Shown piece after piece: positions 10,604 through 63,440 of a stretch of 64,000 nucleotides of DNA. Below the pieces are notes generated by a model. It had not been told where the DNA came from and did not search any database. It saw only the letters and a program-made list of their open reading frames with translations. Numbering within the stretch: position 1 is the stretch's first letter; each line of letters starts with the position of its first letter. The translations under genes and the position numbers were made by a program. Source of the DNA: Amphiscolops sp. MND2022 (taxonomy: Eukaryota); NCBI GenBank assembly GCA_964187785.1, contig OZ076415.1, positions 60,946,001 through 61,010,000 on the forward strand, given 5' to 3'.

Positions 10604-13600
10604 CTACTCACTCGTTAGACGACTAGACGATTTCAAAGAATAATGTCCATATGCAAGGGAGGATACCGTGTCATCTAAAATATACCGCCTGTCATCGTAG
10701 CAGCTCAAGCAACCTTGTTGACAGAGTTGACATATATTTGATGACTGGCTGATTTGAGTTGAATCATCTTTCTACGTACTGTTGATTGAGAAAGTAGACA
10801 ATCCTTGAATAAATTCTGATGTAGCGTTTTTTTGACAGATTTCTAAACGCCTTTAGCACTCTGCTTGGTTCCTCGCACGTAATCGATGCTATACAATTTA
10901 GACCTCGAGCAGACAACTTCTTTTAAAACTTTTCCGTTGAGTTCATCTGTCATTGTTAATGGTACCTTTTTGTTGATTTTGTCGTGGAGAAAATGATCAG
11001 CAGGATAATCCGAGAGGTCCAATAGATGTTTGAATGTGGCCATATCTTTATACAAGTCTTCAGTTTTGATTCGATAAAGCAGGGAGTCTGTGTCTTTGTA
11101 CACAACTTTCAACCGGTCTGCTCCATGCCGTGGAAGCATCTCCTCATAGTGAAACTTGTACAAAGAAAGTTTTGACAAATCCAAAAAACTCGCGCCAACG
11201 GGTGTCAGTTTGTTCCATACCACTGAGGAGGGTTTCAAAGAAACAGTAACAAGATTTTTGCTGATGATTTTGAAACTCTTGAAGGTTGCCCGTTGAATGA
11301 ATGCTTCAGCTTGAGTCTCTGTTGAAACGAACTTTAGAGTACTACATCTTCTGAGATTTTCCATTGTTTTGCCAAAACAAGCGTTCGACATTAGCTTGTA
11401 AAAATTTTTCTCGGAGTCATTTGCGGCACTTCTACGCATTACAGTGTTTTTGGCAATGTACGTTCCCAACCATTTTGACTGTTGAAATTTTACCGCCCGA
11501 TGTAGAAACGTGACTTTAAGACCATGTTTGACATAGAACTTTAAGTTTTCATAATGGCAAATGTAGTTTTTTTGTCGAGCAGGGTCTCTACAAACTTTTC
11601 ATTCGCCGAGCTCATATTCAAACCAAACGACTTGGCATAATCCGATTTCCATTCTTTAGGTATTTTCAATTTTTCCGGAGCCAATGGAAGATCATTATGA
11701 GAGTCGTGTATTCCGGGAGGATACACGAGGTCAACCTCGACGAAGTAACCAACGGGAGAGTCATTGGGCGTAGACAGAATTTCATTCAAAGTAATTTCAG
11801 GACACCATTGATACCCTCCGAGCGGCATTTCCATTTGCATTGTTCCTGCGTACAGAGATGTTACATCAAAAAACGCCCCAAAAGTAACGTCTTTTTCAGA
11901 ATTGAAATTATCCAGATACTTGTTGTTAGCTTCAAAATGCCTCAGTGCACCAAGACCATTGATTCCTCCTCGGATTGCCTTCTCAAAAAACAACAGCTGA
12001 TCAATGTCCTGCAATAGTTCCATTTTAACGCCAGTTGTGATTAGCATGGCATCCCAACTCAGGTTCGGAGCCGAATAAAAGTGAGCTGGATCTAGCCTGT
12101 AGACTTGCATGCATACCTACCTGAACTTTTGAAAAATATCGGCCAGGATGAACACATCACTTTTCAGATAGATATCGTGATAGTCGCCTAAATTTTGGCA
12201 ATGAAAAGCATTGTACATCTCCAAAGCACAACCATAATCTTGCTCGGTAATTTCAATACGTTGAGTCAAGGTGTTGAACCAGCCAGGGCCATAAGGTGGA
12301 AGTGGCTTCGCAAATTTTTCGAGGGAGTCAAGAAAATTGTACGGAAAGAATCCTTTTCTTGTTAATTTTTCAAAGATACTTTCGGTGATGTTTCGGAAAA
12401 ATGCTTTCAACAACTTGAAGTCTTGCTTGTCCAAGGTTTTAGCTAAAGAATCCAAGCTCTGAGAAATAAACTGGAAGCTGTCCAGAAACCGTAAAGAATG
12501 ATATTGAATGACATCGTGACCCTTCCTGCTTTTAAATTTTTCCATGGGCATATCCAAAGAGAACGAAATATAAGTTTCATCGTTTTTCGCAATAGCTGAC
12601 AACTTTTCACCAGTCTCGATTACCAAGTATTTAATAATATGATGAGCGTCATAACGCGAAAGGTTGTGAAAAAATACCGGCAGGAAATTTGTTGTTCACG
12701 CACGCAGGTTGCACTTGGAATGAGCTACTCCAAATATTTCACCAGTTAGGTGACAGTGGTGAATTACCCGTTGACTTTCTTCCATCTCCTCACCACATAA
12801 ACAGCATCTCAAGTCATCTTGGTTCAGTAGAGAAGTTCTATCATCTTTGGATTTTCGTAGAATTTTACATTTTTGTTTCTTTTGGAAACACCATGTTGAC
12901 CACGACCGAAGCAACTTCATCATTTGTTGAATGCAGTTTTTTCCTTTGTAGAACTCTTTTTTCACAACACTGTTACCTAAACCAAAAATTTTGGGTCAGA
13001 AAGGTTTTTGTGAAACGAAAATTTTTGATGCCGAAAAACCTAATATTGACAAACTTACTTCTGTCGTCGATGAGAACAGCACCAAAACTACAGGGAAACT
13101 GCTTTTCAATTTCTTTAGTGTTGCTTCCCACAGTGGTAGATAGATTCGAAGGGACATCAATTGCTTCCAAATCGGCGTAAACAATAAAGGGAACTCTCTG
13201 TGTTTTCTGCCAATTGACAAACTCGACAAAAGGAGCACACGTCGGCATACGAATTTCGAGTGGAGAATTCGACTCACAAAATTTGAAATGTTTTCTGAAA
13301 TTTTTCTTGATGATAGGCTGAAAGCAGTTGGAGCAGAATTTTGACTTTGAACCTTTCTTACGTTTGCTCTCCGATCGTTTTAATCGCTGAAGAAGATTGG
13401 GGAAATTGGTGATTAGGCAGTAGTGAGAGTTGGAGCCCTCTACCAAACGCAGAAGGTTAATTCGTCGCTTCGAAGATTTTCGCTTACTATAATACACAGC
13501 AACCAACTTCCTTCCTTCCAGTTGATAGACATTGATTGAAACATCATTTGACCGCTCGAATGTAGGAATACTGGATAAGGGCATTGGCATTCGCGCAGAA

Positions 13601-14539
13601 TTAAATTTCAGTCGCCTCACATTTTCCTTGTGATTACTAGGATGGCTGGGTCGACCAATGAAAGAGAATATTGCAGCTGCCACGCAGTTGTCCTTTTTGT
13701 TCGTGATATTCAGCAAGCTGCGGGAAAGACCTTTAAGAATAGTTGGCGTTGCAATGTATGAAGATCCACAGGCCATTTGGCACGTAGCTGTTTTGACTTC
13801 AACTGAAAGTAAAGAATCTATCACCCAACCAGATCCACAGGATGCGTAAACACTCAAATTGGACATTAATTGGTCTACGTGAACGTGATATTCTTCATCT
13901 GTGATATGATCAGCCAAACGCATGAAATGAGAATTGAAGAAAGCAGTCACGTCATCGTTGGTCAGTGGTTTCACAAGTTTAACAGCAATGCTAACCCCCA
14001 CCTTTAAATTGGACGATTGACTCAGTTTCTCATTCACAAAAAATATTATACTCTTTTGATTCGATATCAAATAATTGAATGGATCGATACATAAGTCTGT
14101 TCGCATAATTTTCAAGCGATGAACTTTGAATCTATCATTAATGGCTGTAGTCGTGAATTCAACAGGGGCTGAGGAAAAGATTCTTTTTTTGATGTTTTGT
14201 TTCATTCAAGCCGTGATCTTTTCTCTCATGAATGTGCAAAGATTTCTCATGCGCAAAATATGTGGAACAAAAGAAACACCTGTGAGCCGATGGAGACTGA
14301 TGTTGATTTCTAAGATGCTTCAATAAATTGTGGCTTCGGTTGAATTGACTGCGACATTCTCCGCATTCGAATGAGGTAGAGTTCTCCACCAAGTTTTGGT
14401 TATGTTTCGTTTTGAGATGGTTATTCAAAAACCGTCGAGAAGTGAAGACTTTTCCGCATGTATCACACCGATGCATGATCTTACATTCGAAAGAATACCT
14501 GAAAGAGAAGGCTTTCTTCATTGGTTTTTGCTTTGACAT
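10604..14539 (-). pseudogene. Protein-primed family B DNA polymerase with N-terminal 3x C2H2 fingers and an EndoVII-like (His-Me finger) insert
   Basis: Exo I YADLEA, Exo II FHNLSRYD, Exo III YLKSDV, motif A DVTSLY, motif B KLMSNACFGK, motif C YKDTDS, C-terminal DDRRY..AYGHY. EndoVII-like CCLC...HHCHLTG..AHSKCNL. Several stops and frameshifts. Confidence 0.95.
12977..13058 (-). other. Candidate 82 nt GT-AG intron in pPolB
   Basis: A|GTAAGT...TTTAG|GT. Removal joins DDRS to NSVVKKEFYKG, fusing ORFs 12973-14205 and 12696-12965 exactly in frame. Confidence 0.7.
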
Positions 14540-14971
14540 TTTTGTGCTTCCATTGATTCAATCTGGTTTACATCAATTTTAGAAAATGTTTCAATCAAAA
14601 GTAATCACTTCAAATTTTGTTGCATTTTTGCAAAACTTTTCAGTCGAAAACGAGTCATTGTAATTCGATTCAGGAAAGCCTCCTCTTTGGAAATTCGATC
14701 CTTTTAAAACCTTATTTTCAGTGAACAGTCAATTTGTTTTTATTTCGAAGAAAAGTTCTGAATTATAAATGGTTCGTTTAAAACTGGTGCTTCAGTTTGA
14801 AGCAATTGCCATTCGAAAGTTTTGATAAAGTTCGGTTCAGAAGATTCAGTTTCAATAAAGCGTGGTTTCATTTGAGTTTCAAATACATCTTATCAATGGA
14901 AATAGACAACCGGTGTCACTTTTGTTAGATTTGGGTTCAATTTCAGAACCATGATAGAATTCAATAATATC

Positions 14972-15151
14972 GATACTTTGTGTGTGCCAAATGTCAACCA
15001 ACTGTCAATGTTAAACTTGTTTAGTCCATTGTGTATTCAGTTGCCATATGACTGTCATTCTCAGCTGATAATTCTAGCTACCAAAGTTTCATGTTAGCAA
15101 AAGTTGCAAAGGATTCAAAATCTACCTAAACCCCCCCCCTTACTCACTACT
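14972..15151 (-). repeat. Polinton right TIR
   Basis: Reverse complement of 1128-1305; ends ...TACTCACTACT. Confidence 0.95.
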
Positions 15152-15590
15152 GACGTCATTGATAGTTTAACTGCGTAATGGACGTAACGTCCACTTAGCT
15201 AGAGCACATGTACGTTTACCGCTCTCTGATTGGCTAATACAAATTTGAACTACGCTTCTACCGGGCCATAGCGCGCTTCACTTCGAACGCGTTTCCTTTT
15301 CAGCCTATTGCAACAAATTCATTCACCTGCTAATCACTGATTGTATATTCAATTTGAACAGTGTTATTCATCATTATCAAAGGACAGCAGAAATAAATAA
15401 AGAAGCAGGTATTGGCTATAAAATAATTATAAACAATGAGGACCAAACCTTTAGTTTAGGTATCTTGCTGTGGCCAAATGGACGTAACACCCGGATTTTT
15501 ATGTTGGTAGTACGCCTGACGGAGGATTTGCATTGTCCCTGTCAACTGGAAATTGGTGAGCAATTCCAACTCACGCGGTAGCCTGCGACA
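15152..15590 (-). repeat. LTR, proximal part (3' LTR of the 15.6-21 kb element)
   Basis: Begins TG (TGTCGCAGG) on the minus strand immediately after a purine tract; aligns with 20572-20979. Confidence 0.8.
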
Positions 15591-18469: not shown

Positions 18470-20159
18470 TACCCGTCAGCAGACGGTGTATCTTCAAGGG
18501 GTAGGTTGTTATTGGGGTGAAATGTATTAGGAGGATCAGCGATGACACTAATGTCTCTTTTCATATGCGAAGTCGTGGCAAAATCAATTTTTTGTGTTTT
18601 TGAGAAAAGAGTTTGTATGTTTATTTTTTGCGTCTGTATCATTCGGGGACCCATCATCAGTAGTCGAGCTGTCCGGGTGAGAATTCTTGGGTTTGAGATG
18701 CGCTCTGGTGCCCTTCCAGCATTGTTCAGCAGGGTGGTTTGTTTTATCGCCAAGTCGGGCAATGCGGGTATTCCCTTTTAGGTTTTGGGCCGTCCTGGTG
18801 TTTAAGTTCTCCTTTCTTTTTGAGTTTTCGGCAATCGTCCTTGACATGGTCTGGTTTCGTCGTATGTGTCGTTTTCTAGTCTCACCAAGTTGACCGATCG
18901 CTTCAGCCTTCGTGGTAAGTTTGCAAAGCAGAGGCTATCAATCATGGTTTGAACATGTTCGCCAAACTCGTTTTCGGCTCCTCGATTGAGTTCTTCTAAA
19001 AATTTCAGGCAGTTTTAACATAATTGGGTCAAAAACCAAGATATGACATTTGCGGTTGGCTGTCGCTCGAGACTCGGGCTTGAACGATGTTTCCGTCTGA
19101 AAACTGCCAAAAAGTCATCTAGGGTTTTTCTATTCGCCGAATTGATGTTTCGAAAAGTTTGTATTGCATTTTTGCGCAACGCTGAATGGAAATGGCATAA
19201 TTTCATTGTTTGTCAGTTCCAGTTGCATATGATCTTTGTGTTAGAGAGATTTTCAAATAGCTCACATTGTTCTAGTTCCACATCAAACGTTAATGTTGTC
19301 GTGCCGGCAGGACGTACCATCAGCGTTTGTGCTGATGATCGGTTGTTCATACCAACCAGCACACCCGCAAGACGGTTGATGGGGTTAGAATGAGTAGTCA
19401 GAGTTGTAGTTTCTGGTACTGGGAGGGTGCTGTCCAGAAGATAATTTGGAGAGGAATCATGGCGTTGCAGGTTTTCTCGCGGTTGCATGACCGTCCTGTG
19501 AGGAACGCAGGAACCGTAAGAGGGTTAGCGATGGCTCTTGTCACCATGTCGTAATCATTTTCACTATTTTGGGAATCCAAAGAATCTTCCCTAAAATGAA
19601 GGATTCGATTACCATTGTTCAAATCCGCTCTGGTGCAATCTCCTCAAGCTCACCAAGAAATTTCTACTTCGGAGCTCTTGTGTAGCCCACTAGATGTTGT
19701 GTCCATTTTGGTCTTAAATCTCGTTCCCTGCTTGCTAAGGCTCTTTTGGAAGGATGGAAGGACTTGTTCTGTAGTTGCTGAGTCTACGGTTGCTCGTATT
19801 TGAGAGTTCAGTCCACCTTAATCTCAATTAGTTTGCAAGTAATTTCAATGACTTTTCACTGACAAATTCACGAGTGATTAATGCTTTCACTATTTATCTT
19901 CCCTGAGGTCTCGACTATAATTTCTTTGTTTTGCCTACTATTAATGTTCAATGAAGATCTGAAATCTTCACTAATCGGATCTCCATTGTCTTGTGGCTCT
20001 CCGGACTCGCAATCCATATTCATTTTGCCTACATATTGTACTTTCTTCTACATTTCTAAAATAACTTCCTAATATTACATCCGTTTTCTCTAGATCTGAC
20101 ATTGTGTCTGATTGTCTAGACTTCTTCTCCCTTGGCTTTTGATTTGTAGTTGAAACCAT
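18470..20159 (-). pseudogene. gag, fragmented
   Basis: ATG at 20159. Degenerate CX2CX4HX4C knuckle (CPT.DKTNHPAEQCW) near 18700-18770. Confidence 0.7.
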
Positions 20160-20361
20160 ATAAAAACGTTGATTCACTGAACAATGAATTGTAAAACTAA
20201 TTTATCCATCAGTACAAATACTAAGAACAAATGTTTTAGAATCAAGAGAACAAGTGGGATCCAGTCGTGTAGTGGATTGAGGGGTTCATGTAATTATCGC
20301 GGCTCAACTAACTACAGTCCCAGTAACATGACTAGTACAACGTTAGTGGTCATGGTACAAT

Positions 20362-20979
20362 AAATAACTACAGCCTAGACTGAGGTAATTATTCTATTTA
20401 TAGCACCGACTATAGTGAGTGGAGTGATGAAATGTCACGTCACGCAGTCAATAGTAAACCTTGCTAATTTACCTTTTACATAAGTTGCATGTTTGTGAAT
20501 GGCGAATGGAGGAGTTCTAGTCCAATCAGTGTTAATAGCATCAAATGTGTAATACACAAGTTCTTATTTGTGACGTCAATGATAGTTTCACAGCGTATTG
20601 GTTGTTACGTCCACTTAGCTAGAGCACTTATATGTTGACCGCTTTCTGATTGGTTACTACAAATTGGGACAACGCGTCTACCGTCTAGCACGGGACCATT
20701 TGATCGCGTTTCCTTTTAGCCTTTTGCTCTAAATTCGTTCAACTGCGAATCATTGAATTTATATCCAATTTGAACAATGTTTTTCATCATTATCAAAGTA
20801 CAGCACAAGTAAATATGCACAGAAAACATATATTTGTTATAAAATATAATTAAGTAAGAAGTACCAATTCTTCAGTTTAGGTATCTTACTGTGGCCAAAT
20901 TGACGTATTTTCCGGATTCTTATATTGGTAGTACGCCTGGCGGAGGAATTGCATTGTCCGCGCCAGCTGAAATTTGGTG
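20362..20979 (-). repeat. 5' LTR with the empty Polinton site
   Basis: Contiguous match to 920-1127 plus 15158-15558. Contains TGACGTCA (20571-20578) and CCAAT/ATTGG boxes. About 30 nt at its start are replaced by another repeat. Confidence 0.8.
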
Positions 20980-41695: not shown

Positions 41696-42153
41696 TTGCC
41701 GTCTAAAATCCTTTGACGTTTTCAGTGACTTCGGACATAATAATATTTGATTATGAATCATATTAGTAAACAGTGGATTTTTTAAAATCCATGGTTTTCT
41801 CCATGTGATTTCTAAAATCGCCTAAAATAGATGAATTCTTTTGAAGTTTTGATTCAAAATTATGTTCTTGAGAGTACGACTTGACACTTTGTCAGTAGGT
41901 CACAATCGATTCCTGTCTTACATGTCTTAAACGTCCACAGTAATTTTTACTGAAATTGTGCTGTCTACAATGCCAATAACACATGGACATTGTAAATCAC
42001 ATATTTGAATCAACAAGACCTAGCACAATTACAGCTATCTAGAGAAATGTTTGATCATCCAATTTTCCCGAAACCATAACCGAAAATGCTTTGTAATGGT
42101 CAAACTTAGTTTGAGAAGATTCGTTCCCAGAATCATGCTTCACTTTCTTGTTG

Positions 42154-42240
42154 TAAGAATGTGAACAAAAAAGGTTAATGGAAGAATGTGAACAAAAACG
42201 GTTAATGCAAGAATGTGAACAAAAAAGGTTAATGCAAGAG
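42154..42240. repeat. 27 bp minisatellite just inside CMIP intron 4
   Basis: AAGAATGTGAACAAAAAAGGTTAATG(G/C), about 3 units. Confidence 0.9.
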
Positions 42241-42265
42241 TGTAGGGACAGACAGATAGACATAC

Positions 42266-43566
42266 CTTCTTTACTGCTTTCAAGAGTAGAGATGACCTCG
42301 ACCCTGGTCTCTGCGGTGTCGAGGATCTCCATCTGCAGCATCATACACAGCAGTTCCATCATCTGCACGTTACCCTTGGAAGCGAGGAGCAGAATTGGCG
42401 ATAAGAAGTATGCTGAGAGGTACAGAATGAACTTCTTGCGGCGATAACAACAGTTGATGAGGGCACTTAGCATGTGACAGAATAGCGTGCCATTCTGCGA
42501 CTCAGTGGCAAGAAGACCCCCGGGTGCGAACAAGTGGAACCAGCCTAGCTTACCATCTCGCACTCCCAGAACACACGTGTGCACTTCGCACCTTTCGTCA
42601 CTCGCGAAAGACTGGATGATGGGTTCGATCCCCTCGATGAACGAGTCACATACTAGCACGTTTTTAGCAAAAGGAATTGGCTGCAGCAGAGGGGCCAAGC
42701 TGTACCTCCAGTCCTGGAATCTGCAAATGGATTTGAGTAGGAACAAGAAACATCGTATCGTCCGTTTATCTGACTCCGAAGAAACGTCTCTGCTGTGTGA
42801 AGAGGAATTGGGCAGTCCTGTATCGCTGTTTTCAGTGTAGAGCCCATTGTCAAAATCAACTGCCGACTCGCTGCTGAGACCTTGTTCACTGCCGTGGCGA
42901 CGTAGAGATACGCTCTCCTCTAGTTGGCCGGTGTCACCTTGGTACCTGTCTTCGAAGTAGTTTTTGTCAACAGGTTTGGCTATTTTGATGCCGTTGTAAA
43001 ACAAGTTGTCGTGACTACGGCACAACTGCAACGAAGCCAGACTCACAGCGACCAAGTTGCTGAGAACACGGATGTGGGGGCAGTTCTCATTGGATCCATG
43101 TGCATTGGCAACAAAAGTGTCAACTTGCTCTTCGAAGTCGAAATAGTTCATGAGTGCGAGAAAGAAATCAGCGATAAAATCTCGCACTTGCGGACGTTTT
43201 CCGAAGTCGTTGCTGTGTTTCAACAAGCACTGGACCAAGGGCGCGAACACGTCCAATAAATAGGGGGAGTTTGGGTACTGCACAAAAAAGTTGGACAAAT
43301 GTTGGCACAGGGCGTCTGACAAAACGTAGTTCTGCACGCAGAGTAGCAAAGGTTGCAAAATGTTGACCATTTCTATTATGGGCAACTGCTGCAAGTTTTC
43401 TCGGTTCTCACTGCACAGGGAATCAGAAAGCACGTCTAGTACTGACACTTTGACCTCTTCGTGTGATATTCTGCACAGAATGACGTACTCCACTAGACTC
43501 GTCAGCTCGGCCCGTACTTGTTGAGTTGTCTCTGCTTTCAACAGCAACAACCTCCCGTGGGCCAAC
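42266..43566 (-). CDS. CMIP: CMIP exon 4
   Basis: LLKHSNDFGKRPQVR, CPHIRVLSNLVAV, QPIPF, EVHTCVLGVRDGKLGWFHLFAPGG and VISTLES match CMIP. AACAG acceptor and GTATGT donor. Confidence 0.92.
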
Positions 43567-43951
43567 CTGTTGAACATTCAAACCAATTCAAAATCTAGTA
43601 AAAGCCTAAGTAACAAGAAAAACCTAATTTGAACACAAATTTTTCAAGAATTACTGATAAATTACAAAAAGTTGAACAAAAACATTCGATAAAAGTGCTT
43701 TTCATCCTACAGCTGAACTAACGAAAAACACCGCATATATTCATTGGTTGATAAAGGTCTCCATCAAAAGTTTTCGCAAATGAATTTTCAATCTTTTGAT
43801 TCAACTTTTTTTTCAATCTCAATCAGCGACGGCAGTTAATGGAATCATTTTTATACATTGATCATCTTTTAGCACTTCAAATATTGTAGAAAATTAGTGA
43901 CAATGCACGGTCTCTGGAGAAAGAGGATGTAAATTGTTCAGAAATAGAGAC

Positions 43952-50539: not shown

Positions 50540-53500
50540 CGTATACCCGTAGTGCAAGCCCTAGTGCAACACAACCACGTGATATGCTGTTGTTACTAAA
50601 AGCCCACTTCAAAATTATTAAAACACTAGAAAGATGCAGTGCTTCAGTTACACTGGTACTTCCCTGTATGTATAGACGAAACATCAAATTATCCCAGATT
50701 AACATTTGTGGAATGAGCAACCATAGTCAGATCGCTCTGAATAAATTCATCAACATTACTAATCCGTATGTCTTATGCATCAATGAAACGGAAAAGGACA
50801 TGACTAGCGATAAATTCGATAATTACACGTGGTATCAGCTATCAATGGAAACAACAGCCAAAGTGTTGCCATGCTTATACATTCCAGCCTTCCTTATCTA
50901 CGAATATATGATCTCGAAAATATTCATTTTGACAGCATTTGGATTGTGACTGTTTTAAATGGAAAAAAGTTGTCATCGGCACCGCATATATTCAACCCAA
51001 CTCTCCAGAAAAAATATAACATTTCACAAACTCTCTAGGGATCTTGAAGTCCTATTGTATATCAAAAATGGTTCTATTGTTATTGATCTGATAATTTGTT
51101 GCGGCTCTATATGTGACATTCCTCATAGAAGCTCAGTAGACAAGGATGTTGAGCTTTTTTCGGGTGCTCCAAATAGAGGCCACATACCAGTCACAGTAGA
51201 ATTCGAGTCAGAATCTGAAGCAATAACAACGAAGTCTAAACCATGGGTTGAAAAAGCCGATTGGGACAATTGGTCGTTGTTTCTGGAGCAGAATAGCTAC
51301 ACTGTTCCCAGCAATCAAGCTGATGAACTCTGGATATTCACTAAGTCGCTTATCGCCCACGCCTCACAGTATTTTATTCCCTCAAAAACTGTATCGAAAC
51401 ATAGCAAACCTTTCTGGAATACCAAAATGGAAGAGGCGAGTAAATAATTGCGGGAAGCAAGAAGAAAATTCAAACGCAGTTCCAATTACTCGAATAGCGA
51501 AGATTTGAAAGAAAAGAATGAGCTTTTCAAAGACCTTTTGAGCGAGTCTGCATCAACGTGGACACGTAATCAACTAGAGCAGCTTGGGCACAAAAAAGGT
51601 AGAGAATTCTGGAAATGTCATAAGAGACTATTCAAAGATAAGTTTGAGAATATTGGCATTGTCAGAAACAAAAATGGCGAGCTTTTGTGCGATCCAATGT
51701 CCATTTCACAAGAAATTCGCAAAACTTTTTTCGAAGGCAGGCATCTTGAAGGAAACGATTTCCATGACTGACAACCAACTGTTGATTACACTATACCTGA
51801 GTTATGGCATGAACTTGACCGTGATTTCAGTATGGTCGAACTGAATGATGCCTTGAAAAATTGCAGATCTTCATTTGACAATGACATGATTCATGTTACC
51901 ATGCTGAAAAAACTGGGAGCCAACATGAAAAATTTATTGCTCTTCCTGTTCAACACATGTTGGATCACATCCACATGGCCTTGGAACATATCTAGGATCA
52001 CTCTCATAAAAAAAAGCCGGGAAAGCAATCCTACGAACAATGCTCCAGCTATAGACCATTATCCATTTCTAGCCATGTTGAAAAGTTATTTGAATGATTT
52101 CTTCTAGACTGAATCTTTATTTCGAAACTCACAATATCCTTGATGAAGAACAAGAAAGTTTCAGGACTCATCGGAGCACTACCCGTTCTTTGTATCGTAT
52201 GCATCTCGTATTATAGGAAGCAAAGCGCTCGAAAAAGCCGACTGCACTACTGAAAATTGATCTGGAAAATGCCTTTGATAGCATTTGGGTCCAAGGTCTG
52301 CTTTATAAACTTGAATCGGTGAATTTGCCCCACAGGCTGCTATATATCATATCACCCTTTCTTAGCAATCGGGAGGGATTCATTGATATCAACGCCCATT
52401 ACACTGAACTATTCGATATTAATGTTGGTTCCCCCAAGGCAGTGTGCTTTCCCCTCTTCTTTTTATTTTTTACCTGTGACTTCTTATCCGAAGTCGAGGT
52501 AAAGTTCAAATTTGCAGCTGACTGCTCGGCTATCATCTCTGCTTTTAACACAGATACCTTACATTCAACTCTACAAGCTGTTTGTCATAATATAGAGTTT
52601 TGGTGCAAAAAGTGGAGAATGGTAGTTAATGGGTCTAAAACTGAGCTACTTCTTTTGAATTGCTTGGCTGACAACACTGAGCCAATCCTTCTCTACGGGG
52701 AGCGATGCAAGACGAAGCAAACTACTAAATCACTGGGCTTAACTATAGACACTAACCTCACCTATAGAGAGCATACGTCTATTACCACCTCGAAAGCTTC
52801 AACTAGCTGGAGGCTGCTTAAGAGTAAATGCTCTAACAGGTGGGGCCTCAGTATACCAACGCAAGCCTATCTATATAAAACCATAATCAGACCACAGTTA
52901 TCATATGCGGAGCCGATATGGGCCCAAAGAAACTATGCAAGCCTACTGATTGTACAAAATCGAATCATTCGCTCCATAATGAAACACAGCATGTCTCCAA
53001 AGATAACAGCTATTGAAGTGTTGATGGGGATTCCTCCTATAGATATTTATTGTTCTTCAATTGAAATAAAATTTTTAATCAAAGCAGTGAATAAAGATGA
53101 TTTAGTTACCGCGACGCATGTCAAAACATTGACAAGACCCAGTAGTCTCTCCTCCCTTCTCCTAAGCAAACTGAGATTTGAAAGAACTCATATGTCTCAT
53201 TCTTACACTCGGGACTCCATCAATGCCTTCATCAGGGATAACTGGAACCGCAGATGGAACAGTCCGTATAATGACAATTTCCTCAAGAATTTCATTTCCA
53301 ACTTGCAACAAGAAACGATTCATTCACCTTTACTGGACGGAAACCCTTTGATTGCCAACATGATAAGCGATCTTCTCATCGGAAGCTCACGAAGATTAGC
53401 TGAAAACTTATGGAAACTGAGCCGCACACCATCGCCCATGTGTATTTGTGGAACGTCAGAGCAGAACAGCTACCACTATTTCTTCTATTGTCGAAACTAT

Positions 53501-53735
53501 CGTAATTTGAGATCCTTTCATCTCAATTCTCTTGATCTTTTCATCTCTGATGACTGTGGCATCATTAGAAATTTCATCTCTGGTACAAATATTATTTAAT
53601 GTACTGAAACTGCCGTATGCGATCCTGCCTAATATGTATGTATCCACTATATTGTAACTGTTCTTAAATTGATCTGTTTCATACCTGCCCGCAAAGAGGG
53701 GCTTCATTTTAGAATTTATATATATAATACACTGG
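50540..53735 (+). mobile_element. Decayed APE-RT LINE (I/Jockey group), antisense in CMIP intron 1
   Basis: QINICG..VLCINET endonuclease start, degenerate RT motifs, and C-terminal CICG..SYHYFFYC knuckle. Many stops and frameshifts. Related to the LINE at 61064-63440. Confidence 0.85.
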
Positions 53736-56970: not shown

Positions 56971-59900
56971 GAAGACTTAATTCCCTTTTTATATAAAGGA
57001 ACATTCAAGCAGTTGTAATGTAGGCTTTACAAACTGAGTTGATCAAATCTAAGAGCGGCAGATGCTACAGAGACATTTTATAAACCAGGAGCAGCTTCGG
57101 TCTAAATTGAACATTGGGACTTGATTGCGTAGGTATGCCATGAGTTCACGTTTAAATTTTTCAGTTGGGTCAAAAACGTCAATCTCTTTTGTGGCGAGGA
57201 AGTTGGAGTAGTCACAGACTCTTTGGAAGAAGGAGTCTCTCGTGGAGAATTTGCGACATCTTTTGACTGGCAGGAGTTGTTGGTATTTGGAACTTCTGAG
57301 ATCCTTGCAACGTTTGCTGAAACAAATAAAGGTGCTGAGATTTAGGTCATATTTGTTATTTATGGCCTTGTTGAGGAAGACCATGTCATTTAGGACCAAA
57401 TAGAATGATAGAGGTAGGGTATTTGACGCTGCCAGCTGCTGTGAATAATTTTGTAAACCAGTTACCCAAAAAAGACATTCTTTATTGAATAGTTCCAACT
57501 TCCGTCGGTAATTAATGGAGGGGTACCATATTTGGGATCCGTATAGTATAATACCTCAGTCCTTTCGACCAGAAAAATTCGACCTATTTACAGCCACCCA
57601 TACTCTGAACACACAACCTGTAGTACATAAGCTTCGTGGAAGAACTAACACTATGAGGAATTGAGCGCTTCAAGAAATGATAAGCTTTTCTGGCAGCCAC
57701 CAATTTCTTTTGAAAATGGTTGTCCCATGTAATATTGTTTGAAATGGTGATTCCAAGGTCTTTAATTGAGTCAACGGTGGGGACAATATTACCGTTCAGA
57801 AACAGAGGATCCGACGACGCTAATTTTTCCTCGAAAATGATTGACTTGCACTTGTCAATGTTATATTCCATTTTGTTCCTGTAAGCCCATTCAGTAAACT
57901 GATCAATATCCTTTTGTAAATCAGGTTTGGTCAGAAGAGACAGTAATTTACTATCATCTGCAAACAAATAGCATGAGGAATTGACAATTTTGTCAGGAAG
58001 ATCATTCATAAAAATAATGAAGAAAAGAGGTCCGATGACACTGCCTTGAGGTACACCGCTATTAATATCCACCATCTGGGAGAGGGAGCCATTTATTGAT
58101 ACTCGTTGTGACCTTGAGTATAAGTAAGACTTGAATAAGATCAAAAAATCTTCATCGAAGCTAAAATTTGCCAGTTTTTCCAGAAGAATATGATGTGGAA
58201 CTAAATCGAAGGCCTTCCGAAAGTCGAAGTAGATAGCATAACTAGAAGCGTTAATATCTTTTTGGTTGTACAAATCGTCTAGATAGGGTAAGAGCTGGGT
58301 AATAGGAGAACGCTTCTTTGTGAAACCATGTTGTTCATCACAGATTGAGAATCGCACTTGCGGGTATATGTGTCGGAAGAGCAATTTTTCAAGAATAAGT
58401 GAGAGCTGTGGTAAAATGCTGATGGGCCGATAATTTTCCACACTTTCGGGGTTTCCAGACTTATATATCGGCGTTATATATGAGCATTTCCAATCAGTTG
58501 GCCAACTTCTTGCCTTTATTACTACATTAAAAAGTTGAGTGGCCAGCGGAGCCAAAATATCTGGGCATGAGTTCAGCAAAAAAGTAGGAATAGGGTCTGA
58601 GCTCAATGAACAAGTTTTAGTTTTCGAGAGTAAATCTGCGACTTCAGAGGGATTGATGGTAAAATCTTCCAAACGGATTGTAGGTAGTTCAGGTGGTTGC
58701 AAAGGTATATCTAAACTTTTCTGGAAGACAGAGCTGAAATAACTATTGAACAGATTAGAAATTTCGTTACTGGTGTTTGCTTTCAGTGTGTTCCAGTTCA
58801 TTTGATTTGGCAAGCGATTCGAAGAGAAAAGCGTAAAAACTTGAAGCAAGAACGAGTGGAGACAGGAGATAGATTTTCAAGGAGGACTGTTTTGTCTAAT
58901 TCAACTGACAAACTAATCTCTTGTTTTAACCTTTCAGTGGTACCATTTCTGTAGTTACATTTTTTAGCTGTACGAAGTTTGTTGATCAGGTGAATTGAGT
59001 GGGAGGAATAGAAGTACGGATACTGTGATCGGCGAGAAGTTTTGATTTTGCAAGACATATTTAGAGCATACAACACTGTTTGTTGCCACAATGAGAAAGA
59101 TTCTTCCATAGAAACATCACTGAAGCTGCAATTTGGTAGTGCCAGTAATGTGTCGAAACCATTGGATAAATGGGAGTTGAACAGAGTACTAGAAAAAGAT
59201 GACAAAGAGTACATAATTGATGTATTAGTAGCTGCCTCTGAATAGGGGATAGGAAGGTTTAGCAAAGCAAAAACAGGGTAATGATCAGAGTAGAGATGTG
59301 AGTCAACATAAACATTGAATAGCTCGGAATGTGATGTTAGAATTATATCCAGAGTGCTACCAGACTTATGAGTAGGCTCAAAAACTAAAGGATTGAGATT
59401 CATCGCTTGAGATTGAACTATGAAGCTTTTGGAATAGTCGCTCTGGCCAGTTACAGTTGCCCAGCAAACATCATTCAGATTGAGGTCTCCTAAAATGGAG
59501 AAAGAGCTGAGATAATTGATTTCAAATTTAGCATAACACGAGGAGATCCAATCAGCCAAAAGGTTCGCTTCGATTCGATATGGAGATTTCGATGGTGGAT
59601 TGTAAATTAAAAGGAACAAGTGAGAACCCTGGATGGTTGTAATGGAAATAGTGACGGCAAAATCATTGATTTGGCCAATTTTCATATTGCGTCCAATTTT
59701 CTGAGTTAGGTCAGAGTAGTTGAAACAGAAATCATTTTTGGCAGCAACGAGGACACCGCCGTGTTCGCCACCAGAGCGATCTTGTCTGGCAATGATTGAG
59801 TAGTTACATTTCAATGGGCAAACTTCAGAGTCTTCGATTTCTGGGTATAACCAAGTTTCAGTGACAAAAACCAAATCAGGTGAGTGTAAACTTAAGAAGT

Positions 59901-60863
59901 TGAGTAGTTTCAATCGTTGCTGGAGATTGATAACGCTTTGTGCATTCAATAGGCAAATTTTCATCTGCAGTCACTTTTGGAAGGTAACTTCAGTTCCGTT
60001 TCTGAAGAGCTTAAGACCTTTCACTTTGATTTCATCTCGTGGTACCCCGTCACTATTGATCATTTCATACCGTTTCTGCAAAAGCTTCCGTTTGGTTGCC
60101 TGATCTTCTTTATTCAGAGATTGTGATATGAATATTCGTTCATGATAATTTTTCAGCCTGTAGGATTTTGAAAGACATTTCCTGGCATCCCATTCTGAGG
60201 CAAAACGAATGAGGAGCGGCCTTGGTTTTGACATATCAGCTTTGGGTTGACCTAACCTGCGGGTAGATTCTATTTTGAGGTTTTTTCATCCATATGGTTG
60301 AATACTTCCTGTAGTTTGGAGTTGTCAGCTTCGAAAGACGACTTAAAAGTTCCTTTATCCTCAACAAGACCATTTATGATTATCTCACGAGATAGACTCT
60401 CTTCATTTACATGTTTTTTGACAGGTTCAGGGGTTGGTCTGAGGGCAGATTGGATTTCAGTTAAAGAATTTTGAATTGATTTCATACTACTTTTCATATT
60501 TTTGGCATCAATAATATGATTGTACTTAGCTTCAGGGCTGAAGATGTCATCATTGAGGCAGGAATCGCAGAGCCAGAGACATCCTTTGATTCGTCCCATC
60601 AACTTGACATCCTCCTCAGACAGGCTTGCACAAGCTCCATGGTACCAAAGAGAGCAGTTGTCACATGCGATGCCAGATTTGTCCCCATCTTTGACACTCC
60701 TCTTGCAACTGCCACACTTGGATGAACACACGAACTCTTGTCTAGTTGAGCTCAAGTGTGAACTAATTAAAAGAGAAATTTCGAAGTTCTTTCCCAATAA
60801 GCGTCCCGTTTCCGCTTTCAAAAATAAGGACCGTGCGAACTGGAACCATTTTAAAAGGGTCTT
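56902..60863 (-). mobile_element. CR1/L2-type LINE, near full length, with frameshifts
   Basis: ORF1 PHD (CGSC..CDNCSLWYHGAC..CDSC) and RPLLIRF..IFISQSL. ORF2 APE (LLNAQS, VTETWL, SDH) and RT (GVPQGSVIGP, LFADD). The 5' end runs into the gap. Confidence 0.92.
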
Positions 60864-61063
60864 NNNNNNNNNNNNNNNNNNNNNNNNNNNNNNNNNNNNN
60901 NNNNNNNNNNNNNNNNNNNNNNNNNNNNNNNNNNNNNNNNNNNNNNNNNNNNNNNNNNNNNNNNNNNNNNNNNNNNNNNNNNNNNNNNNNNNNNNNNNNN
61001 NNNNNNNNNNNNNNNNNNNNNNNNNNNNNNNNNNNNNNNNNNNNNNNNNNNNNNNNNNNNNNN
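60864..61063. other. Assembly gap (200 N)
   Basis: Run of N. Confidence 1.
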
Positions 61064-63440
61064 ATTAAAATAGCACTGTCGTCAGCGAACTTGTAGTGAC
61101 ACGGTTCCTCACTCAGAAAATCGTTTGAGAAAATTACAAACAAAAGTGGTGACAAGACACTGCCCTGAGGGACACCAATGTCTATTTTGAACATAGATGA
61201 ACGGAAGTCAGATAACTCAATGAATGCTTCTCGGTTTTTCAAAAAGGTTCGTAAAATGCAGAATATTTTACCGTTTATTTTGTAATGTCTGAGTTTGTAA
61301 AGTAGGCCATCTATCCACACGATGTCAAAGGCCTTTTCGAGGTCAATGTTGAGTAGAGCGGTCGGTGTTTTCATTAATTTAGAATTTTCCAGATTAAGAT
61401 GTAGCCTGTACAGAGATCTGACTGTGTTTCTTTTACTTCTGAAACCTTCTTGTTCGTCCGCCAGAATGTTCTCGATTCCCGTGAAATAATTTAATCTATT
61501 GCACGGCATACGCTCAAAGAGCTTTCCAAAATTACTAGAGATTGATAGCGGTCGATAGCTGGAACAGTCGTCATACCTGTCTTTGTTAGGCTTCCTGATA
61601 AACACAATTCGTGATAAAGACCAGGGCCATACAGCATGTTCCCAACATGTATTAACAATCTCCAAGAGAAGAGTTTTCGCATTGACTCGCAAGAGTTTTT
61701 GATCATTTTGACGTGGAACCCGTCAGGGTCGAAGGAGTTTGTATCAGAAGATTGTTTCATTGCTTCGTTTAGTTCTTCCATTGTGAAAGGTTCATGAAAA
61801 ACTTCCGAAACATGCTCGGAAGCATCATCAAACGAGTCCAGATAACCTGAGTCTGTCCTTGACATTGACTCGTCGAAGTTGAGAGTTTCCAGATGTTTTC
61901 CTTCGAAGAAGGTCTCTTGGAATTCTTGAGCAATATCTTTTTTTGAGAGCAGCAGTTTCCCGTGTTTATTCTTGATGAGATCCACTTGGGAACTGCTTCC
62001 AGCGAACAGTTTCTTGTACGATACCCAAAATTCTTTGCCTCGTTTGTGTCCAAGTGTCTTCAAGTAGTCTTTCATCCAGGCAGACGCCTTTTCATTGAGT
62101 AGTCGTTTGAATAATTCTTTCGCTTCTGCTAGTTTTTCTAAATTTGCATAATTGGACTTGTATCGGAAGTTCCGACGCAGCTGCCTGAGCTCTTTACTGG
62201 CTATAGTTAACTCGGTGCACCAAAATGGTTTACTATGTTGCGTAATTGTTTTGAAAGGAATGAAAAGTAGTGTGGCCTCTCTCAAAGAGTTCTTGAAAAA
62301 CTCCCACATTTCCAGAGCATTATCTGAAGTTGTCCAGTCGAGCATTTCAGTTTCTAGATGTGCGCGCCAGTCATCCCACATTGCTTTCTCAATCCACGGC
62401 TTCTCCTTGAAATAACCACTTTTCGACTCGAGAAGAGAAACTAGCACAGGCAAGTGGCCCCTGGAGGGTGCTCCAGTGAATAGTTCCGTATCTTCATCAG
62501 TTGTAAGCGAGCATTTGTATTGGTTAATGAAGTTTCCATAGCAAATGCAAAGATCTATTACACTTTGATCATTGATTGAGAGGAAAGTAGGTTGGCCATC
62601 GTTCAAAATAGTATAAGTTGGTACGAGGCTGATTAACTCATTTCCAAGTGCATTGCACTTCTGATCACTCCAGTATAAGTGTCTGGCGTTGCAGTCGCCA
62701 AAGAAAAGGACACCTTCCATGTGATTTGTATCTGCGTAGACTTTACAGGCTTCAAGTTTTTTTATGAGTTCTAGTTGTTCACCTTTGTCATCAGGTTTTA
62801 CATAAGAAGTCGTAGTTAGTGATTTTAGGCCGCGGACATTAGCTGCAGCAACAATATAGTCATTGTTTTTGGTCTCTAATTCCTCTATTTGAGCATACGC
62901 CACATCGTTACGAAACAACAACGCAACCCCGCCTGTCGATTTCTTTGGAGTACTACTGAGAGTTGTATAATTGGTAAAGGCATTATCAGGAATTTGTTGT
63001 TTGGTTTCATTCAAGAAAACCACATCTGGTTTATGTTTTTCAAGATATGCATCAATTGCAATTTTACTGTGATTACTCAAGCCGCAAATGTTGATCTGTA
63101 AGAATGATATTCTCCTTTCAGGAGCCATCATGCCATCCATCATGATTTTCATCAGTTAGCCCTCGAGCGTCATAAACCACTTGTTTTTGTTTAATGTAAG
63201 TTGGGCACACAAGTGAATCCGCATCGTGAGTCCCTTTGCAATTCATACATTTGCTTTCTAATTCTTTATTCGGACAGTCTTGAATTTTGTGATCTTCACT
63301 GCAGTGTTTACAGGCTGTTTTGGAGTGGCAGTTTCCGCTAAGGTGACCGAATTTTTGGCAGTTGTAACATCGAATGATTCTTATGCCTCTCTGAACAAAT
63401 GCATATGGCTGGTAGTAAATGGAATGGAACTACCCGGCTT
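61064..63440 (-). mobile_element. I/Jockey-group LINE: ORF1 C-terminus and ORF2 (APE-RT), cut by the gap
   Basis: ORF1 triple knuckle CYNCQKFGHLSGNC / CKHCSEDHKIQDC / CMNCKGTHDADSLVC (stop 63118-63120). ORF2 QINICG, FLNETK, GDCNARH, GVPQGSVLSP and FADD. Confidence 0.9.

Follow-up and report, generated by a model that had tools for sequence, protein, structure and literature searches.

A probable spliceosomal intron at a shared codon of the DNA polymerase gene in eight Polinton families

Polintons carry their own DNA polymerase gene (pPolB), and in the stretch of DNA analysed here (64,000 nucleotides, referred to as the window) this gene is interrupted by 82 nucleotides. The locus raises the question of whether the insert is a spliceosomal intron and, if so, whether it was gained recently or inherited. 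An earlier note on this DNA had proposed a spliceosomal intron with the geometry of an introner or of the repeat-flanked intron gains in Daphnia. We conclude that the insert is very likely an old, inherited U2-type spliceosomal intron, a reading strongly supported by comparison of sequences and given a probability of about 0.9. That the intron is spliced out, and that host RNA polymerase II transcribes the gene in the nucleus, is what we infer.

The element and the insert in its polymerase gene

Terminal inverted repeats, a 6-bp target duplication, pPolB, an rve integrase, a packaging ATPase and a cysteine protease are all present in the window copy and place it among the Polintons (Table 1). 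Intron-free core genes, a Polinton trait according to the literature, were not found throughout, as pPolB is split in eight families. The 456-aa open reading frame of the putative capsid protein gave only a weak Capsid_N match (E 0.096) and no sequence match in the PDB. This copy is dead: several private stops and frameshifts interrupt pPolB and other genes, including a frameshift near 14170-14190 in pPolB exon 1 and, in exon 2, two stops (near 12697 and 12118) and two frameshifts (near 11570 and 10720). Its own transcript therefore need not be made.

Table 1 Features of the window copy (positions in the window; introns and branch point as predicted).
Feature	Positions	Strand	Remarks
Whole Polinton/Maverick copy	1128..15151		AGTAGT...ACTACT ends; 6-bp target duplication GACGTC
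Left terminal inverted repeat	1128..1310	+	91% to right arm
Right terminal inverted repeat	14965..15151	-	91% to left arm
A32-like packaging ATPase, intron-free	3595..4260	+	Pfam PF04665 (Pox_A32)
PHD + rve integrase, intron-free, frameshifted in window copy	5310..6522	+	PF00665 below curated cut-off
Putative major capsid protein, 456 aa, intron-free	8004..9374	+	Assigned by position and size
Ulp1/adenovirus-type cysteine protease, frameshifted in window copy	9371..9977	+	PF02902 (Peptidase_C48)
pPolB exon 2: exonuclease remainder, EndoVII-like insert, DNA_pol_B_2 polymerase	10607..12976	-	PF03175
Phase-1 GT-AG intron in pPolB, 82 nt	12977..13058	-	Donor GTAAGT 13058-13053; acceptor TTTAG 12981-12977
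Branch-point-like CTGAC	12995..12999	-	Its A 20 nt upstream of the insert 3' end
pPolB exon 1: C2H2 zinc fingers, terminal-protein-like, vOTU-like protease domain, exonuclease start	13059..14476	-	

The Polinton sits in an older repeat of about 1.4 kb (window 86-1128, 15151-15558 and 19547-20979), whose second copy lacks the element and has just one GACGTC, near 20570, at the empty site. Elsewhere in the window lie three LINE-type elements (52217-53599 and 57584-63155) with endonuclease and reverse transcriptase frames, one of them with a PHD open reading frame; they could supply the reverse transcriptase needed to lose an intron. A 512-aa open frame on the minus strand (42039-43577) contains 27-nt tandem repeats and has no Pfam match.

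The AT-rich insert with its two splice-type ends was confirmed where the earlier note had placed it, and its A+T content is 70%. As had been claimed, its removal restores the pPolB frame: when the split codon is read as X, the frames on either side give a gap-free alignment of 201 residues to three uninterrupted homologues (P0001-P0003). The reported GTAA also stands, being the first four nucleotides of both the insert and exon 2 in the 82-nt family, and so does the absence of terminal inverted repeats from the insert, with at most 6 of 15 end positions matching. Members of the 82-nt family have a T-rich 3' end and CTGAC at -20; of the 11 sequences tested, only 5 have a YTRAY branch motif in their final 45 nt. 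Folding of the insert is unremarkable (z -0.59), and an Rfam search of window 1000-15300 returned 0 matches at E 1 or lower. Together with the length of only 82 nt, these two results speak against a self-splicing group I or group II intron.

A nucleotide search of the same genome returned 41 matches, and the insert was present in all 30 loci that were fetched. In three of ten copies examined, the insert is the sole break in pPolB, with one open frame of 508 aa and one of 796-797 aa on its two sides. Seven young copies are 99.0-99.8% identical to one another and each lies in different flanks, so the 82-nt family has spread recently with the insert already in place. To look for an intron-free version of the 82-nt and the 62-nt families, the genome was searched with patterns of the joined flanks in which the split codon was set to N and one mismatch was allowed; each gave 0 matches. 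When the 82-mer alone was used as query, all 31 matches lay within Polinton copies, these counts being lower bounds; dispersed copies of the kind considered by the earlier note did not appear among them. An older copy of the 82-nt family (L031; G000 C6, near 39177400-39177720) has an insertion of about 350 nt within the intron, with the splice ends intact, and at G000 C8:62502880-62509222 (L024, L029, L030) an intron-bearing pPolB fragment with a decayed donor is repeated in tandem at a spacing of about 2 kb.

The same codon in other Polinton families

A protein search of the genome revealed many further pPolB families, and the junction could be measured in 108 of the 109 pPolB loci given. An insert of at least 40 nt is present in 66 of these 108 loci and missing from the other 42. 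Nearly all of the inserts (64 of 66) start with GT at the identical phase-1 base. An AG end falls on the mechanically extrapolated base in 55 of 66 and, by eye and with small exon indels allowed, in about 63 of 66; the mechanical count is lower because exon indels shift the extrapolation. The background in the insert interiors is 0.064 for GT and 0.036 for AG, and the insert ends reflect more than chance.

Eight families, including that of the window, carry the insert, with lengths of 82, 66, 60-62, 68, 66, 64-69, 88 and 86-87 nt. In the seven other families the phase-1 inserts of 60-88 nt have the donors GTAAGT, GTGAGT, GTTAGT or GTTTGT and acceptors that are mostly TTTYAG, and across families most inserts have a length that is not a multiple of 3 or contain a stop. 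Insert interiors align within close family pairs only (z 4.9-13.2, as compared to z of at most 3.4 for distant families). Both exons are under purifying selection, with dN/dS of 0.09-0.31 in close pairs; in distant pairs pS is 0.79-0.91 and pN 0.17-0.30, and synonymous sites are saturated. Four intron-free families are colinear over the site with a 0-nt gap. Among 23 further measurable loci, 3 of which are repeats of places already counted, intron state agreed with the family of both flanks in 22. The shared codon and GT/AG ends in eight families, the diverged interiors, the selected exons and the colinear intron-free relatives together make an old inherited spliceosomal intron very likely, and the spliceosomal part of the original proposal thus gains comparative support.

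One copy of the 62-nt family (L100; G000 C3, near 45720850) has a 63-nt stop-free intron and hence a read-through frame of 1288 aa. No second shared gap was found in the other 11 genes when one element each of 10 other families was compared, a comparison that could overlook an intron that is short and in frame where a gene has diverged. On a metagenome contig, a distant pPolB with 39% identity (L177:1420-1505) is interrupted close to polymerase motif B by another GT...AG insert, about 75-80 nt long, which is a candidate for an independent intron.

For exon 1 we used an alignment-based fold with a pLDDT of 76, as the single-sequence fold reached a pLDDT of 35. It comprises zinc fingers, a terminal-protein (TP)-like domain (113-234, Z 8.1) and a vOTU-like domain (244-363, Z 7.6-7.7). 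At these middling Z scores, the TP-like domain models as an LF/PAD-like fold and the other as OTU-like; Foldseek returned no hit with an E-value of 0.001 or below. The predicted intron follows both domains and lies about 35 residues beyond YADLE, the first exonuclease motif.

These observations bear on three other explanations of the insert. Passive insertion during decay, with chance splice sites, would suit the dead state of the window copy, and it is refuted by the presence of the insert in every family copy fetched, near-identical young ones included, and in seven other families, with no intron-free copy recovered for either of the two families probed; its probability is practically negligible. 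The insert is real and not private to one decayed copy. Alternatively, pPolB might naturally encode two proteins, one with zinc fingers, terminal protein and vOTU and the other the polymerase, separated by an intergenic spacer with incidental GT and AG. The domains modelled for exon 1 would agree with such a division, and splits between TP and polymerase are known from adenoviruses and a coral Polinton (available text of PMC11071308). The break nevertheless falls within the exonuclease domain and not between TP and vOTU like the published splits, GT and AG occupy exact phase-1 bases in eight families, and starting at the first downstream ATG would remove homologous residues. A pair of separate genes is accordingly highly improbable.

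Introners are characterized by near-identical copies scattered over unrelated host sites, and by inverted repeats at their termini or a target duplication that is conserved. The suggestion of an introner, or of a recent gain between repeats, has a mobile sequence that made its own donor by duplicating GTAA as it inserted. It draws on the complete 4-nt repeat in the 82-nt family and on the occurrence of introners in Maverick/Polinton-like elements of dinoflagellates (available text of PMC11957031). Against it stand the missing inverted repeats, the confinement of all 82-mer matches to Polintons, and a site common to families with saturated synonymous sites and non-aligning interiors. The repeat itself is incomplete or absent in seven of the eight sequence types, with 4, 3, 3, 2, 1, 1, 0 and 0 of 4 bases matching, and is complete only in the 82-nt family. 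One intron-free family has GCAA at its empty site, so the repeat can arise from the donor consensus together with conserved coding sequence; because synonymous sites are saturated, it can neither date nor explain the gain. A recent introner event is thus largely refuted and very unlikely, and this part of the earlier note was not borne out. A 4-nt duplication may or may not have accompanied the original intron gain.

Gain, loss and exchange of the intron

Tree rows were a subset of the data, with the 42 of 108 loci free of nearby frameshifts kept and 22 of those entering a mixture-model tree. In LG+G4 trees the DNA-confirmed intron-bearing families form one clade with support of 100/99 for exon 1 and 99/98 for the full exon 2. 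The mixture-model tree, run in quick mode only, supports the intron-bearing clade with an SH-aLRT of 99, and in a short exon-2 tree of 330 columns it is unresolved. A single intron gain in the ancestor of this pPolB clade is probable.

Many database pPolB proteins end or begin at the insert codon, as an intron-blind gene caller would produce. The pair P0246 and P0077 (longest contig 17,042 bases for both) and P0250 are split at this codon, yet they are sister (100/99-100) to an intron-free clade. Holding all split rows as one group, which had been named after an earlier tree, was rejected (AU p = 0.0003), and the larger pPolB tree requires four changes of intron state. Judged from protein ends alone, the split rows outside the main clade suggest precise loss in a sister clade, with parallel gain less likely. 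Precise intron loss would thus probably have occurred in at least one sister clade, on weaker, protein-only evidence than the gain.

Several independent gains of a real intron at one hot spot would also produce four changes on the larger tree and the dispersal of split rows that the AU test detects once P0246, P0077 and P0250 are added. One gain followed by precise losses, however, takes just as many steps, no proto-splice motif is shared by the empty sites (A^GTTC, A^AGAG, A^CAAA, A^GCAA), and the database splits are read from protein ends only. We regard repeated gain as rather unlikely and prefer a single gain with later loss.

No member of the P0077 lineage turned up in this genome, where the best match reached 68%; a scan of viral contigs with P0002 confirmed no relative, and a metagenome scan yielded two distant loci at about 40%. 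Three distant database pPolB proteins with 35-46% identity (P0264, P0265 and P0270) end in or read through intron-like sequence at the site or at most 2 codons from it, a hint, from protein sequences only, that the intron may be far older.

For one element from each of 11 families (L045/L047 and L130-L149), the pPolB tree is at odds with those of the ATPase, integrase, a 300-aa open reading frame and the protease. By its structural genes the intron-free L131 is sister to the families with 62- and 87-nt introns, and the 82-nt family of the window groups with the intron-free L132 and L146. The conflicting trees point to a polymerase module that has been swapped between families, with the intron travelling along with the polymerase gene in each exchange.

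Host splicing and known systems

Host sequences are compatible with excision of such an intron. We found 23 U1 snRNA matches in the host genome, and in the one U1 copy read the 5' end is the standard ATACTTACCTG, which can pair with GTAAGT. Introns of the host chaperonin (CCT) genes are GT/GC-AG with TTTCAG-like acceptors; the Polinton introns (60-88 nt) are shorter than these, which measure at least 220 nt in a small, alignment-placed sample with some uncertain boundaries. The nearest named pPolB, at 55% over the exon-2 region searched, is that of Convolutriloba macropyga, an acoel, and the host would accordingly be an animal. In the proposed mechanism, the host spliceosome would excise the intron from the pre-mRNA to give one full-length polymerase, while at DNA replication the intron would be copied passively with the element. 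Its interior would drift neutrally and its splice ends would be retained, because the unspliced frame stops after 1-28 codons and the polymerase would be lost. For the same reason the element is predicted to need the host spliceosome for its polymerase.

A further-reaching reading is that of an ancient replication switch, in which splicing would yield the full polymerase and retention a zinc finger-TP-vOTU protein of 480-506 aa, the intron having been long kept, exchanged along with the polymerase module and precisely lost at least twice via reverse-transcribed mRNA. We consider this doubtful; an intron that is neutral and merely tolerated would account just as well for the variable tail and for the existence of intron-free families. 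If it were true, the TP/vOTU protein made on retention could be a spare primer or a repressor, and a DNA virus-like element would display the full cycle of intron gain and loss.

What we describe is very likely an intron of the ordinary kind in a gene where none was expected, and one genome offers a clean series of its presence and absence. The earlier note had stated that Polinton genes are generally described as intronless, and for core genes the available text of PMC8097293, bioRxiv 2022.07.12.499685 and PMC10120064 agrees: no introns were observed in intact vertebrate Mavericks (PMC8097293), introns are placed in cargo genes only (bioRxiv 2022.07.12.499685), and core genes of protist elements are likewise intronless (PMC10120064, PMC8547959). 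Introns that are reported from related elements are group I introns in a small PLV gene (PMC12220804) and the mobile introners of dinoflagellate Maverick-Polinton-like elements (PMC11957031), again according to the available text. Nothing closer was found in the text available for a nematode pPolB preprint, PMC8502044, PMC5718144, PMC11296320, PMC6431247 and two 2026 preprints. Overall, none of the literature searched, which did not cover supplements, Repbase, Kapitonov & Jurka 2006, Pritham 2007 or the Daphnia intron-gain work, describes a spliceosomal intron that is inherited in the polymerase gene of a Polinton.

The finding matters for how such elements are annotated. According to the available text, at least one large survey relied on prokaryote-style gene callers because core genes were taken to be intron-free (PMC10120064), and intact elements have been defined by intronless open reading frames (PMC8097293). 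Under this assumption lineages like the present one are scored as broken, and in the protein database their polymerases are stored as two halves that end or start at the insert codon. A conserved intron in a replication gene would mean that the element is transcribed in the nucleus and depends on the host spliceosome, with consequences for where it replicates and into which hosts it can cross. With intron-bearing and intron-free families in one genome, gain, loss and possible splicing control become directly testable in a virus-like element.

The Drosophila P element shows regulated intron retention, and adenovirus early genes are spliced. By analogy only, the Polinton pPolB would likewise be a replication gene of a mobile or viral element that relies on host splicing, with no regulation being claimed here. 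In domain order, exon 1 models as an LF/PAD-fold TP-like domain followed by a vOTU-like domain and in this resembles the TP-vOTU-Exo-Palm architecture of pPolB in the available text of PMC11071308; the splits published there lie between TP and vOTU and create separate genes, whereas the predicted intron lies past vOTU and within the exonuclease domain. As in the dinoflagellate case (available text of PMC11957031), an intron of spliceosomal type resides within a Polinton-like element. Introners move, occur in many copies, are for the most part young and have mostly entered once the element had integrated, in contrast to the present intron, which appears to be single-site, old, inherited by the replicating lineage and without dispersed copies. 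In its length of about 14 kb, terminal inverted repeats, 6-bp duplication, pPolB, rve integrase, A32-like ATPase, Ulp1-like protease and putative capsid gene, the element matches the animal Polintons and Mavericks of PMC8097293, bioRxiv 2022.07.12.499685 and PMC8502044 as far as their available text goes, and it differs from those described in that its pPolB carries a putative intron conserved across eight families.
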